Shown one piece after another: positions 21,344 to 26,067 of a DNA stretch of 30,282 nucleotides (its first letter is position 1; the number at the start of each line of letters is the position of its first letter). This DNA is from a virus (taxonomy: Duplodnaviria > Heunggongvirae > Uroviricota > Caudoviricetes), in the IMG/VR virus record IMGVR_UViG_2671181050_000003, one strand, 5' to 3'. The notes beneath the pieces are model-generated. The model saw only the letters and a program-made list of their open reading frames with translations, was not told the DNA's origin and ran no database searches. Both the position numbers and the translations under genes were made by a program.

Positions 21344-21589
21344 TCACCGGATTACCACATCCCACTCCGGCTCCTGCCATCTCAAATCCGGTGAATCATT
21401 TCTCTCAGGAATAACCATTACGTCCTTTTCCCTTCGCTCCCTTTCTATCGCCATCACAGCCAATGCTGCAACCATGATGTATTTTTGTTCGTCGGTTCCT
21501 GTTTCATAACGACGCATGAGGGTAAACTCGGGGCGATCAGTAACCTCAATGATTTCGTTAATTTCTTTAATTTCGCGAGGAATATCCAT
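21344..21589 (-). CDS. Hypothetical protein (81 aa)
   Basis: ATG preceded by AAAGGAGA; fills the gap between the antitoxin and the zinc-ribbon gene; its start overlaps the plus-strand start at a CCATGG palindrome. Confidence 0.35.
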   Translation of the reverse strand: MDIPREIKEINEIIEVTDRPEFTLMRRYETGTDEQKYIMVAALAVMAIERERREKDVMVIPERNDSPDLRWQEPEWDVVIR

Positions 21590-22262
21590 GGGTTTAGTCT
21601 CCTTTGATATCACATGCCCGCACTGTTTAAAAGAGCGAGCTGTTATTGAGGCATTTGCCGAAAAACAAATTGAAAAAACACCTTTTTTTAACGTCGCTTT
21701 TGTATGCAGAAGTTGTCATCGAGGAGGTGTTGCTATTGTTGAAATCCCATCAGACCACTATCACGGTCCCATGGCGGAAAGCCAGAAAAAAGACCTCGAT
21801 ATTCTGATTTCAGGAAATAGCCAGTACCGTTTCCGCAAGATCTATCCTGTGGTCAAAAAAATTACCGCACCAGAATATACGCCCCCGGTTGCAGACCGTA
21901 CTTTTGTTGAGGCAAAAGAGGATTTACAGAGGAGGCGGTACGACACAGTGGTTATTCTTTGTCGCAGAGTCCTCGATATCTCCACGAAAAAACTGCTCGG
22001 CGATGAAGCAGGAAAAGAATCGCTGTCGCAACGTATTCAGATGATTTACAAAAAAGGCCTGATCACTGAACAGATGAAGGAATGGGCTCATATTGTACGA
22101 ATTGATGCCAATAAAGCAGTTCATACAGATGAAGTTTTCACACCAATTGAGGCAAGCCAGATCCTGAGTTTTACCGAAATGTTTTTAGTCTACGCCTTCA
22201 CTCTGCCTGCAATGGTGGAAGCCAGACGTGAACAAAAAAGATCAGATTCAGCCTCTATATGA
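21588..22262 (+). CDS. Zinc-ribbon protein with a DUF4145-like C-terminal helical domain (224 aa); candidate defense protein
   Basis: Start taken at MGLVSFDITCPHC with a GAGGAA ribosome-binding site. CPHC...CRSC four-Cys pattern at the N-terminus; C-terminal region (...IVRIDANKAVHTDEVFTPIEASQIL...) resembles DUF4145 as I recall it; opposite strand to flanking phage genes. Confidence 0.55.
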   Translation: MGLVSFDITCPHCLKERAVIEAFAEKQIEKTPFFNVAFVCRSCHRGGVAIVEIPSDHYHGPMAESQKKDLDILISGNSQYRFRKIYPVVKKITAPEYTPPVADRTFVEAKEDLQRRRYDTVVILCRRVLDISTKKLLGDEAGKESLSQRIQMIYKKGLITEQMKEWAHIVRIDANKAVHTDEVFTPIEASQILSFTEMFLVYAFTLPAMVEARREQKRSDSASI

Positions 22263-23537: not shown

Positions 23538-24278
23538 TCACATACCCTGACGTCCAACGTTTGACCGCCAGCTCTCCCAGTTAAAATTCACCCAACGACC
23601 ACCATTCATGGTCATACGGTCCATCACCCGATCTCCGAGGAGTGTGCTCATCGCTGCGTGATTCAGGTTCGTCAGGATCCCGACCGTGCGCAGTGATGCC
23701 GTTCTGCGGTCGACGATCTGGTTCAGTATGACCTGCTCGTTGCGCGTATCCCGCTGCATGCCAATTTCATCAAGGACCAGAAGGTCAACTCCACAAAGCT
23801 CCTGTAAAAATTTTTCCCCGGACTGGCCGTTGTTGTAGCCGTCATGCAACACGCTCATGACATCGGACACGGTGACGATAATCACGCTTCTCCCCTTCGC
23901 CATCAGCCGATTGCCAATCGCTGCTGCCAGGTGATTTTTACCGGTACCAGGTTTACCGCTGAACACGAAGTTTGTACACCCGGTCATCAATTCATCGGCA
24001 ATGGATTTCGCCTGGCTCAGAGCATGGCGCTGACCGTCGTTCTGCACCCGGTAGTTCCCGAATGAGCACTTCCTGTGAAGCGGCTGGATGCCCGCACGGT
24101 TCAGGATTTTTTCAACCCGCACCTGATGATTCAGGCGGTTAATTTCCTCGCTGCGCTTACGGCCCTCAGCCAGTTGCCATTCCCGCCATTCGTCGGTCGT
24201 CCGGAACGGTGGAACCGCCCCCTGTGGTGCAAGTCTGCGAATACGTTCAAGAACCCCAACTGCCGCAATGTTTTTCAT
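23538..24278 (-). CDS. DnaC-like helicase loader (IstB-type AAA+ ATPase, 246 aa)
   Basis: Walker A GKPGTGKNHLAAA and Walker B LLVLDEIG; follows the replication initiator. Confidence 0.85.
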   Translation of the reverse strand: MKNIAAVGVLERIRRLAPQGAVPPFRTTDEWREWQLAEGRKRSEEINRLNHQVRVEKILNRAGIQPLHRKCSFGNYRVQNDGQRHALSQAKSIADELMTGCTNFVFSGKPGTGKNHLAAAIGNRLMAKGRSVIIVTVSDVMSVLHDGYNNGQSGEKFLQELCGVDLLVLDEIGMQRDTRNEQVILNQIVDRRTASLRTVGILTNLNHAAMSTLLGDRVMDRMTMNGGRWVNFNWESWRSNVGRQGM

Positions 24279-24284
24279 GACACG

Positions 24285-25247
24285 TCACCCCCTGAATCCC
24301 GGCGGTATTTCAGTGTCCGGTTCAGAAATGTGATTCACGCAACGCTGCGCAGGCGAACGCCCCAGGCGGATAACCAGTTCATCCCATTTTTCCCGGAGTT
24401 TTGCCGGACTCATGATGTTTTTTACCCAGAACGAATCCCGCTGGAGACGCCCAAACATTTCACAAATTTGTCTGTGAGTTCTGCCATCCAGCATCCGCAT
24501 TGTGCGAACGTCATTGGCCCATGCTGTCCAGTTGGGTTCTTTCGGTCTAGTGATCTCGCCATCATAGCTGGCCGCCTGCTCGTAAAGACTCACGATTCGT
24601 CCCCAGATCCACTGTGCGCACACCAAATCTTCCTGACTTCCCCACTGGCGTTTTTTCGCACTGAACACAACCGCGTCAGGGTGTCGGGTTAAAAAATCCT
24701 GTTCAGCCGTCTGCGGGTCCGGTTGCGAAGCGTCCGGACAAGAAGATCTTTTATCTGACGGATCAGGTTTTAATACTGACGGATCGGGGTCAATCATCGC
24801 CCCCCTAATCGGCAGTTTTTTATCAACAGTTGATCCATCAAAATTTGACGGGTCAACCGTTGAGGGGTCAATATTTGACGGGTCAACTGTTAACGGGTCA
24901 TTTTTTGCCGGGCTAATTTTTCTTTTCGGTTTATATGACTCACGCGCCGCCGCCGCAGCTGCTTCGAGTTTTTCCACATTAAGCCGATAGATATTGCTTA
25001 CATTACGCCCACCGACCTTACGCTCTTCCTTCGTCAGCCAGCCCTCTTTCGCCAGTTCTGCAATAGCCGATTTCACTGTGGATTCACTTCTTGCACCGAT
25101 CTGACGCCGGATAGTTTCAATGGCAGGCCATGACACGCCCTCGTCATTGCTGTAGTCTGCAAGACGGGCCATAACCGCCACCCTGGATAAGATCATGCCG
25201 GTGAAGGCGCACCCTTCCCAGACAAGACCATGAAGCTTGCTGCTCAT
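24285..25247 (-). CDS. Replication initiation protein (O-like), carrying the iteron array internally
   Basis: N-terminal helix-turn-helix region (WPAIETIRRQIGARSESTVKSAIAELAKEGWL), a repeat-encoded linker and a C-terminal domain; start taken at the ATG (MSSKLHG...) because the track's first codon is a GTG. Confidence 0.75.
   Translation of the reverse strand: MSSKLHGLVWEGCAFTGMILSRVAVMARLADYSNDEGVSWPAIETIRRQIGARSESTVKSAIAELAKEGWLTKEERKVGGRNVSNIYRLNVEKLEAAAAAARESYKPKRKISPAKNDPLTVDPSNIDPSTVDPSNFDGSTVDKKLPIRGAMIDPDPSVLKPDPSDKRSSCPDASQPDPQTAEQDFLTRHPDAVVFSAKKRQWGSQEDLVCAQWIWGRIVSLYEQAASYDGEITRPKEPNWTAWANDVRTMRMLDGRTHRQICEMFGRLQRDSFWVKNIMSPAKLREKWDELVIRLGRSPAQRCVNHISEPDTEIPPGFRG
24783..24910. repeat. 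Iteron-like direct repeats (GACGGGTCAA-type, at least four copies) inside the initiator gene, followed by an AT-rich stretch; candidate origin
   Basis: Read directly: cggggtcaat, gacgggtcaa, gaggggtcaat, gacgggtcaa, aacgggtcat, then ttttttgccgggctaatttttcttttcggtttatat; translated as DPLTVDPSNIDPSTVDPSNFDGSTVD. Confidence 0.55.
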
Positions 25248-25269
25248 AAAACCCCCGAACACCGTGCTT

Positions 25270-25695
25270 TTAGTGCATCACCACAGCATTCCCTGCCGGG
25301 CCGCCGCGATTCATCTGGTCATACAAAACAACCGCTGACGCAACAAAATCATCGACATCCTTCACCAGCCGATCCCTCCGTTCGACGATCTCACGGTAAT
25401 ATTCAGAACTGTGGCTGCGCATACGGGCCACTAGCAAAGGCGGCATCGCCTTTTCGATCGCCGGTAACAGAGCCTGCATTTTTTCAACAGCATCAGGGGT
25501 GTCTTTATCCAGCCAACGGAAAATTTTCTGGGTATTACGGGCCAGGGCTTCCGGATGGCTGTCGTCATACAGTTCCGGGAACGTCATTCCCAGCTCGAAA
25601 TACGCTTTGGTAATTTTCGCAGCCGGCACTTTTTCGCCGTCCGGATGCGCCCAGACATTCATCGCCATGCGGATGTGTTCATGCTTGATTTTCAT
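25270..25695 (-). CDS. YdaT-like protein (141 aa)
   Basis: N-terminus MKIKHEHI matches my recollection of the Rac prophage YdaT; AGGAG ribosome-binding site; immediately downstream of the Cro-like gene. Confidence 0.6.
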   Translation of the reverse strand: MKIKHEHIRMAMNVWAHPDGEKVPAAKITKAYFELGMTFPELYDDSHPEALARNTQKIFRWLDKDTPDAVEKMQALLPAIEKAMPPLLVARMRSHSSEYYREIVERRDRLVKDVDDFVASAVVLYDQMNRGGPAGNAVVMH

Positions 25696-25960
25696 GAATC
25701 AAGCTCCTAGAAAGTGGTTGTGTTAACGTTTTGGTATCTTCCAGCTCGGGCCAAATATTCATCCAATCAAAAGGCCTTAGTTGCTGACGTGTAACTTCAC
25801 CATTACTGGCTCGCTCAATAAGGACACATAACGATGCCCCTAACACTTGACCTTTACTCAATGCCTTTCTTAGATAACCGATGCTGGTACCACACTCGCA
25901 TGCAAACATACGCTGTTCATCTGACGAAAGAGAATTGAGAAATATTCTTAATTCTTCCAT
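25679..25960 (-). CDS. Cro-like / YdaS-family helix-turn-helix regulator (93 aa)
   Basis: AAGGAG ribosome-binding site; divergent from the repressor gene across an operator-rich intergenic region. Confidence 0.6.
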   Translation of the reverse strand: MEELRIFLNSLSSDEQRMFACECGTSIGYLRKALSKGQVLGASLCVLIERASNGEVTRQQLRPFDWMNIWPELEDTKTLTQPLSRSLIHENQA

Positions 25961-25989
25961 AGCTACTCCTTAGTAAACACAGCAAAGAA

Positions 25990-26067
25990 TACCTACAGGT
26001 AAACAAAAGTCAATACCCACAGGTTGTTTACCTTGCGGTAATCGCATCTATTATTTACCTATGGACA
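25990..26067. promoter_or_regulatory. Operator cluster: four TACC-N4-GGTA sites in the cro/repressor intergenic region (OR-like)
   Basis: tacctacaggta (25990), tacccacaggtt (26014), taccttgcggta (26029), tacctatggac (26056, overlapping the repressor ATG). Confidence 0.5.

Follow-up and report, generated by a model that had tools for sequence, protein, structure and literature searches.

Why does the gene for a phage replication protein carry, in frame and at an unvarying period of 15 bp, a row of nearly identical repeats that are translated into a monotonous peptide? The question is raised by a 30,282-nt stretch of tailed-virus DNA (Caudoviricetes; IMG/VR record IMGVR_UViG_2671181050_000003), here called the window, which is a lambdoid Escherichia coli prophage. 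The gene concerned is located at 24285–25247 on the minus strand, where the open reading frame (ORF) list and the RefSeq annotation of the identical gene in E. coli strain CE10 place a gene that PHROG identifies as an O-like initiator. The protein comprises 320 amino acids (aa) when counted from the ATG at 25247 that is used in RefSeq, whereas the ORF listing extends to a GTG at 25262. It is highly probable, in our assessment, that the replication origin of the prophage is embedded in this gene, that is, in the gene of its own initiator; this origin would be of the lambda style, with the repeats very probably as its binding sites. An earlier sequence-only reading had proposed this arrangement for the interval 24783–24930, and all computational tests supported it. 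The observations concern the repeats and their position, selection at the DNA level, covariation with the N-terminal domain of the initiator, AT-rich flanks, and homologies; the order of elements is that of lambda, with an O-like C-terminal domain.

The repeat array inside the initiator gene

The array spans 24825–24901 and was delimited by repeat finding, a pattern scan and conservation in the family. It consists of five 12-bp dyad-symmetric cores of the form TTGA-SSSS-TCAA, namely TTGATCCATCAA (core 1, 24830–24841), TTGACGGGTCAA (core 2, 24845–24856), TTGAGGGGTCAA (core 3, 24860–24871), again TTGACGGGTCAA (core 4, 24875–24886) and TTAACGGGTCAT (core 5, 24890–24901). The repeat search found all five in register, with spacings of 15, 15, 15 and 15 bp, in agreement with the previous count of at least four direct repeats at roughly 15 bp. 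The core dyad TTGAC-CC-GTCAA is palindromic at 10 of the 12 positions, and the individual sites deviate from the family consensus by 0–2 mismatches. Tandem Repeats Finder reported a 15-bp period with 5.2 copies over 24823–24900 and 24844–24921, in addition to a 30-bp super-period with 82–84% matches. When up to two mismatches were allowed, the 12-mer TTGACGGGTCAA produced 10 hits in the 30-kb window compared with 3.06 expected, a number reached in none of 100 shuffles. The five phased sites account for seven of the ten hits, the sites at 24845 and 24875 being counted on both strands. The degenerate pattern TTGASSSSTCAA marks the five phased sites as well, against 7 scattered hits in the remaining window.

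Read on the sense strand, units of the type GAC CCG TCA AAT ATT encode aa 117–141 of the initiator, DPLTVDPSNIDPSTVDPSNFDGSTV, or, divided into units, DPLTV-DPSNI-DPSTV-DPSNF-DGSTV; the sequence-only reading had given this linker peptide and its coordinates correctly. Degenerate units border the array on both sides. On the N-terminal side, 24902–24914 comprises most of an extra unit; the full unit, 24900–24914 (aa 112–116; sense AGCCCGGCAAAAAAT), is in register with the array, has a weak match to the core, and its last two bases lie under the core at 24890–24901. On the other side, a degenerate last unit with an A-tract (24810–24824; sense GATAAAAAACTGCCG) contributes to the least stable 31-mer of the region, 24816–24846, discussed below.

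That the array is bordered by a degenerate unit at either end might indicate that the origin has decayed, the prophage being cryptic and the array an unused relic. The neighboring exonuclease gene is indeed frameshifted in the identical prophage of E. coli strain CE10, and many lambdoid prophages of E. coli are defective. However, the ORFs of the initiator and of the adjacent helicase loader are intact, the cores adhere closely to the family consensus, and the array is kept in alleles with 91% and 97% identity. Moreover, CE10 and hundreds of other genomes share the initiator gene with 100% identity, 1091 genome records contain it with an identity of 99% or more, and of the 5426 complete E. coli genomes, more than a quarter (1514) carry 80% or more of its length. 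For the array as such, decay is thus very improbable, and for individual prophages it is possible.

Selection on the repeats: DNA or peptide

An in-frame array could also matter only as protein. The peptide (DPSxx)n would then be a flexible or oligomerizing low-complexity linker that arose by replication slippage, the similarity of the units at the DNA level would be a side effect of duplications or gene conversion in the recent past, and the real origin would lie elsewhere. The units are indeed in frame, their Pro/Ser/Asp-rich sequence is typical of linkers, and the copy number varies from 3 to 9 among relatives, as slippage predicts. However, selection on individual nucleotides of a dyad-symmetric site is a prediction for the binding site of a dimeric protein, and not for a linker that is needed only as a peptide. 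We therefore compared the codons of the repeats across a family of related initiators, which included 80 loci with a homologous N-domain (53–74% identity) from a species-representative genome collection, together with four phage records. The genera covered were Erwinia, Mixta, Edwardsiella, Morganella, Kluyvera, Enterobacter, Kosakonia, Yersinia, Providencia, Proteus, Rahnella, and others. A scan of viral contigs returned only N-domains that were 100% identical and thus useless for covariation, so that the diversity stems from the genome scan. In all analysable relatives (78 distinct sequences) an in-frame 15-bp array, usually of 4–5 copies, directly follows the N-domain.

For the codon test, the units were defined from the protein alone, which resulted in 66 distinct arrays with 299 units. 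An earlier definition based on the DNA had been partly circular, and the protein-only recount gave the same result. Serine at position 3 of the unit is encoded by TCA in 265 of the 299 units (89%), compared with 26% elsewhere in the same genes. Similarly, lysine is encoded by AAA in 208 of 208 units (68% in the rest of the genes), and aspartate by GAC in 81% of the units (42% in the rest of the genes). Codon 2, on the other hand, specifies 12 different amino acids. The two fourfold-degenerate sites of each unit show opposite behavior: the third position of codon 2 is unconstrained, whereas codon 3 ends exclusively in A or G. In arrays of type A, the subtype present in the window (see below), the residue at position 3 can be S, P or L, yet its codon has A as the third base without exception (33 of 33 units). 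Furthermore, relatives use the 12-mer in both orientations (TTGACCCCTCAA / TTGAGGGGTCAA), which encode Asp-Pro (DP) or Glu-Gly (EG). Thus, the residues change, whereas the DNA site is kept or inverted.

Recent homogenization does not account for these patterns either, because it would equalize whole units, whereas codon 2 differs between the units of each single locus. In addition, the order of the unit variants is conserved between genera, which indicates that the units are old. Taken together, the codon data argue that specific nucleotides of the dyad-symmetric site, including synonymous ones that are fixed across genera, are under selection as DNA, beyond the needs of the peptide. A purely peptide-level role of the repeats is therefore most unlikely. 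If, instead, the repeats are part of an origin, the odd peptide (DPSNI/DPSTV)n would be explained by the location of the sites in an inter-domain linker, the sequence of which is dictated by the DNA requirement.

Arrays of 9 units are present at L012:2501-3541 (Edwardsiella anguillarum) and in L056 (Providencia). The former consists of a 45-bp super-repeat, DPPNI-DPPTV-EGLTV, that occurs three times. These expansions indicate that the copy number is plastic within the family.

A probable recognition module and the AT-rich flanks

The presumed reader of the iterons is the N-terminal winged-helix domain of the initiator (aa 1–100; 24948–25247, minus strand), which is matched by Pfam PF13730 (HTH_36) with 27.8 bits at a cutoff of 25 and is kept at 55–77% identity in 24 aligned relatives. 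By analogy, the DNA target of a dimer of this domain is presumed to be the dyad site, as in TTGACCCGTCAA. The arrays fall into two types. Type A, found in the window and in loci L008–L015, has the unit (A/G)TT GAC CCN TCA A.., that is, TTGA-SSSS-TCAA, and type B, found in most other relatives, has the unit TCT GAC NNN TCA AAA, that is, CTGAC-NNN-TCAAAA. The N-domains of the two types differ by a one-residue insertion in the turn of the helix-turn-helix (GA[RK]S.. versus GA-G..) and by different wing residues, and the type of the N-domain tracks the iteron subtype. This covariation is in line with the earlier proposal that the repeats predict the binding specificity of the initiator.

The case of phage mEp460 points in the same direction. 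Its C-domain is 86% identical to that of the window at the nucleotide level, and the similarity ends at 24752, just past the second of two GATC boxes described below. Its N-domain is unrelated, and at the junction it carries a 12-bp repeat, ACAGAGAATACA, in 2.8 copies (L004:1834-1867). By this comparison, mEp460 represents a natural swap of domain and iterons. In addition, many relatives carry the same N-domain and array joined to a different C-domain, of the 'ITDQAKQVL.HLN' type. The N-domain, the iterons and the GATC boxes thus behave as one module, and the alignments argue that they form a single exchangeable unit that recombines with different C-domains at a boundary at about 24752. Such an exchangeable initiator-origin module corresponds to the classical lambdoid picture that emerged from hybrid work with lambda, phi80 and P22 (compare also PMC8022706).

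The covariation bears on a further explanation, namely, that the repeats bind another protein, such as a host factor, the prophage repressor or the cII-like protein, and constitute a regulatory or partition-like element rather than an origin. In its favor, the identity of the protein that binds the repeats is something we infer, and one DnaA-box-like 9-mer, TTTTCCACA, occurs within the initiator gene at a distance of 50 bp from the array (24970–24978, plus strand). However, the repeat changes together with the N-domain of the initiator, even where the C-domain is identical and the neighbors are similar. The motif is absent from the immunity/operator region near 26000 according to the pattern scan, DnaA boxes are at chance level across the window (2 found, 2.75 expected), and the scan for promoter-like sites found neither a promoter nor a terminator within the array. 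Hence, a regulatory or partition-like element bound by another protein is hardly credible, and the N-domain of the initiator is the far better candidate for the reader.

A truncated relative of the initiator exists in E. coli K-12. At L007:1424-2131, in the prophage CPS-53/KpLE1, a truncated helix-turn-helix pseudogene adjoining yfdN is a type B member of the initiator family that has lost its N-terminus; we take this pseudogene to be yfdO. An assignment of this K-12 match to the Rac prophage was considered and rejected, because the match is the truncated yfdO of CPS-53.

An origin also needs a region that can be opened, and helix stability was scanned for all 31-mers of the 2.1-kb region of the initiator and loader genes. 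As a control, the top-scoring 31-mer of lambda, 39131–39161 (O residues 149–159), coincides with its known AT-rich region (81% AT, z = 3.56). The three 31-mers with the lowest stability in this region are all located beside the array or overlap with it, namely, 24816–24846 (77% AT, z = 3.11), 24913–24943 (z = 3.07) and 24745–24775 (68% AT, z = 2.78). The second is part of an AT-rich flank at 24898–24943 (71% AT), defined by composition profile and stability, which corresponds to the AT-rich stretch that the sequence-only reading had placed after the repeats. The stretch is real, but it is on the N-terminal side of the array, opposite to the side of the AT-rich region in lambda. On the C-terminal, lambda-like side, the composition profile and the stability delimit an AT-rich segment at 24740–24775 (GC content 0.325). 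The element that is conserved in the family is located here, at 24745–24790, a position equivalent to that of the AT-rich region of lambda, and much of it is outside the interval originally proposed.

The segment on the C-terminal side contains the two GATC boxes. Box 1 (24771–24785, aa 155–159; sense GATCCGTCAGTATTA, also written GATCCGTCAGTA..) includes a Dam site at 24782–24785 and is abutted by an iteron-like half element at 24786–24794 (sense ATTGACCCC). Box 2 (24750–24764, aa 162–166; sense GATCCGTCAGATAAA) includes a Dam site at 24761–24764, and a third GATC, within AGATCT, is located at 24745–24748. Both boxes, with the consensus GATCC(G/A)TCAG(T/A)(A/T), are present in essentially every family member, and the core of box 1, GATCC(G/A)T(C/T)A, shows almost no variation. 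Asp is encoded by GAT in all 78 distinct members compared for box 1 (78/78) and in all 59 compared for box 2 (59/59), and at this synonymous site it is GAT that creates the Dam site in both boxes. In the neighboring iteron-like FDPSES box, in contrast, Asp is always encoded by GAC (34/34), the codon that is also preferred in the array. Altogether, four GATC sites are located within the 91 bp from 24745 to 24835, compared with 3.07 per kb in the window. A cluster of GATC sites in an AT-rich region is thus found here as it is in Dam-controlled origins of the oriC and P1 oriR kind.

The conservation of the boxes suggests control of the origin by methylation or SeqA, or a role of the boxes as auxiliary initiator sites. 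The segment 24745–24790 is a candidate for the likelier region of unwinding and loading or, alternatively, for a set of auxiliary initiator sites; the latter is considered because the sequence CCGTCA is shared with the iterons. A bolder version would have the unwinding and loading region built on the two invariant GATCC(G/A)TCAG boxes and would place firing under the control of Dam methylation and SeqA, in the manner of oriC or P1 oriR, with alternating dyads at 15 bp in a geometry unlike that of the lambda O-some. We put this forward tentatively and rate it as rather unlikely; if true, it would couple a lambda-type O-some to the methylation clock of the host.

A working model and related origins

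By analogy with ori-lambda, binding, melting, loader recruitment and origin activity can be combined into a working model. Dimers of the N-terminal winged-helix domain would occupy the five or six 12-bp TTGA-SSSS-TCAA sites spaced 15 bp apart, and the resulting nucleoprotein complex would strain and open a neighboring AT-rich stretch, most likely the family-conserved, GATC-bearing segment 24745–24790 on the C-terminal side. The lambda-O-like C-domain and a DnaT-like tail would then serve to recruit the DnaC-like loader of the phage together with host DnaB.

Two parts of the initiator would act in the last step. The C-domain (aa 182–300; 24348–24704, minus strand) was identified by BLASTP against lambda O and by tblastn against lambda, and is 39% identical to lambda O aa 171–277 over 119 aa (E = 5e-26, BLASTP). 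The C-terminal tail, ...SEPDTEIPPGFRG (24288–24350, minus strand; phmmer and NCBIfam), resembles the extreme C-terminus of the host DnaT/primosomal protein I over the last 21 residues, AQRCVNHISEPDTEIPPGFRG, with E-values of about 0.01 against the PDB chains 2ru8, 6aep and 9zbt (phmmer) and 0.004 against the NCBIfam DnaT model. Annotations of such proteins as 'Primosomal protein I' are due to this tail. In E. coli, dnaT is located just upstream of dnaC, and the initiator gene has the same position relative to the DnaC-like gene. Rac YdaU and relatives that differ in their C-domain terminate in the same tail, and so do relatives in which the gene downstream encodes something other than a DnaC-like loader. 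It may be a peptide that recruits the loader or the helicase, or a relic of co-acquisition.

Several points weigh against the model, or at least against a close copy of lambda. The spacing of 15 bp corresponds to about 1.4 helical turns, compared with 20–24 bp in lambda, so that adjacent dimers would be on nearly opposite faces of the helix, and the geometry of the lambda O-some is unlikely to be reproduced. Profile comparison revealed no relationship to the N-domain of lambda O (hhalign of the N-domain family versus lambda O aa 1–138, probability 0.1), and a single-sequence AlphaFold model of aa 1–105 had a mean predicted local distance difference test (pLDDT) score of 57, too poor to confirm the fold. 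The AT-rich stretches (68–77% AT, z about 3) are weaker than that of lambda and are present on both sides of the array, so that they do not single out a melting side. In the codon statistics, units count as independent although the loci share ancestry, and P-values thus overstate independence; nonetheless, the divergence of the family covers several families of Enterobacterales. Finally, a literature search found no experimental evidence of binding or of origin activity for this initiator family.

The comparison with ori-lambda itself reveals extensive similarities. In lambda, four 18-bp iterons are annotated at 39034–39118 of J02459, corresponding to O residues 117–145, and are followed by the AT-rich region at aa 149–159 and by the C-domain homology from aa 171; in the window, the iterons are at aa 117–141, the AT/GATC segment at aa 152–168, and the C-domain begins at aa 182. 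In both systems, dyad-symmetric iterons, typically in 4–5 copies, are located inside the initiator ORF at the junction of the N- and C-domains, an AT-rich stretch lies just downstream in the direction of the gene, the C-domains are homologous, the initiator gene is downstream of cro and cII analogs, and the loader gene is next. The differences are equally clear. The N-domain of the window initiator belongs to HTH_36 and that of lambda O to phage_O_Nterm (TIGR01610), a model that does not match the window initiator but matches the lambda O control at E = 5e-39. The sites are 12 bp long at a period of 15 bp, compared with 18–19 bp at 20–24 bp in lambda; the AT-rich segment is less AT-rich and contains the invariant GATC boxes; and the loader is DnaC-like/IstB-like rather than P, with a DnaT-like tail on the initiator. 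The earlier label 'O-like' is justified by PHROG 391, 'replication initiation O-like' (E = 2e-115), and by the C-domain, but extends neither to the N-domain nor to the DnaC-like partner. The system is outside the strict lambda O/P set because both N-domain and loader differ, whereas the C-domain is homologous, and by analogy it would work like ori-lambda.

Comparable origins are known from other phages, and annotators routinely derive O-gene origins from repeats (lambda, P22 and L: PMC8022706; Stx phages: PMC7466680). In P22 and phage L, each O-like gene, gene 18, contains its own set of repeats, four of about 20 bp in P22 and six of 11 bp in L (Casjens and co-workers, PMC8022706). As in the window, these origins were inferred from repeats inside the initiator gene, and that of phage L is likewise only predicted. 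The repeat sequences and the initiator N-domains are different, and the partner is a DnaB-type helicase (gp12). O proteins of Stx phages with six-iteron origins (PMC7466680) exemplify natural variation of the iteron number in a lambdoid O gene; in contrast to the window, these phages have true lambda-type O N-domains and iterons, their loader is of the P type, and biochemical studies of them exist. The architecture of the window initiator has a precedent in the HTH_36 plus DnaT_C O-like proteins, DopC and its phage relatives, which are encoded beside a helicase-loader gene (Brezellec et al., 2017, PMC5509034). No iteron-like sequences were reported in the domesticated dopC locus (PMC5509034), whereas the phage version in the window has a clear array.

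The Rac ydaU-ydaV region (oriJ) shares with the window the order of a ydaS-like gene, a ydaT-like gene, an initiator, the DnaC-like ydaV and ydaW/DUF1627, as well as an IPPGFRG tail and repeats in the middle of the gene. YdaU differs by its DUF1376 N-domain and by 14-bp repeats, AAGCAGATGTTCAA, and it was rejected as a homolog of the window initiator, since only the C-terminal tail is shared. In E. coli K-12, ydaU (L168:2972-3063) contains four 14-mers resembling AAGCAGATGTTCAA, with spacings of 33, 33 and 12 bp; by their corresponding relative position, these are candidate iterons of oriJ. Iteron origins of plasmids (RepA/pi/RepE) have iterons of 17–22 bp about two helical turns apart that are located outside rep, and they usually contain DnaA boxes. 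The array in the window has 12-bp sites at a 15-bp period inside the gene, with DnaA boxes at chance level.

Thus, the arrangement is ordinary for such phages, in a family for which it seems not to have been described before. The literature search found no description of the iteron of this family (TGAC-N3-TCA at a 15-bp period) or of its GATC boxes, and iterons are not mentioned in the 'Eru' paper on Stx phages. Since an origin within an O-like gene belongs to the textbook biology of lambdoid phages, no concept changes. The family is, however, spread across Enterobacterales and is part of a common E. coli prophage, and in the identical CE10 copy RefSeq labels the initiator only as 'helix-turn-helix domain-containing protein'. 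In place of this generic label, an origin with its recognition sequence would allow annotators to mark the prophage origin. It would also explain the odd repetitive linker, define an exchangeable replication-specificity module with a boundary at about 24752, and offer a compact pair of origin and initiator as a potential replicon.

The prophage setting

The initiator gene lies in a lambdoid neighborhood. The order of minus-strand genes is a pR-like promoter candidate, a cro/YdaS-like gene (25679–25960), a cII/YdaT-like gene (25270–25695), the initiator gene, the DnaC-like helicase loader gene, DUF1627 and DUF977, with a divergent repressor-like gene on the plus strand. The loader gene (23538–24278, minus strand), directly downstream of the initiator gene, was identified with NCBIfam, PHROG and Pfam (PRK12377, 494 bits; DnaC PRK07952, 311 bits; PHROG 50; Pfam IstB_IS21). 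The pR-like candidate (25986–26013, minus strand) matches the consensus at 9 of 12 positions in a scan in which the number of hits was at chance level, so that its placement follows from gene order only; this candidate would drive the cro-like, ydaT/cII-like, initiator and loader genes, and thus transcription through the origin.

In CE10, the prophage with the identical initiator gene has at one end an integrase gene adjoining ompW. The CE10 prophage is otherwise collinear with the window, but where it has queH on the minus strand, the window has an ORF of 248 aa on the plus strand (21516–22262), so that the two prophages, nearly identical in other respects, differ locally in their cargo.

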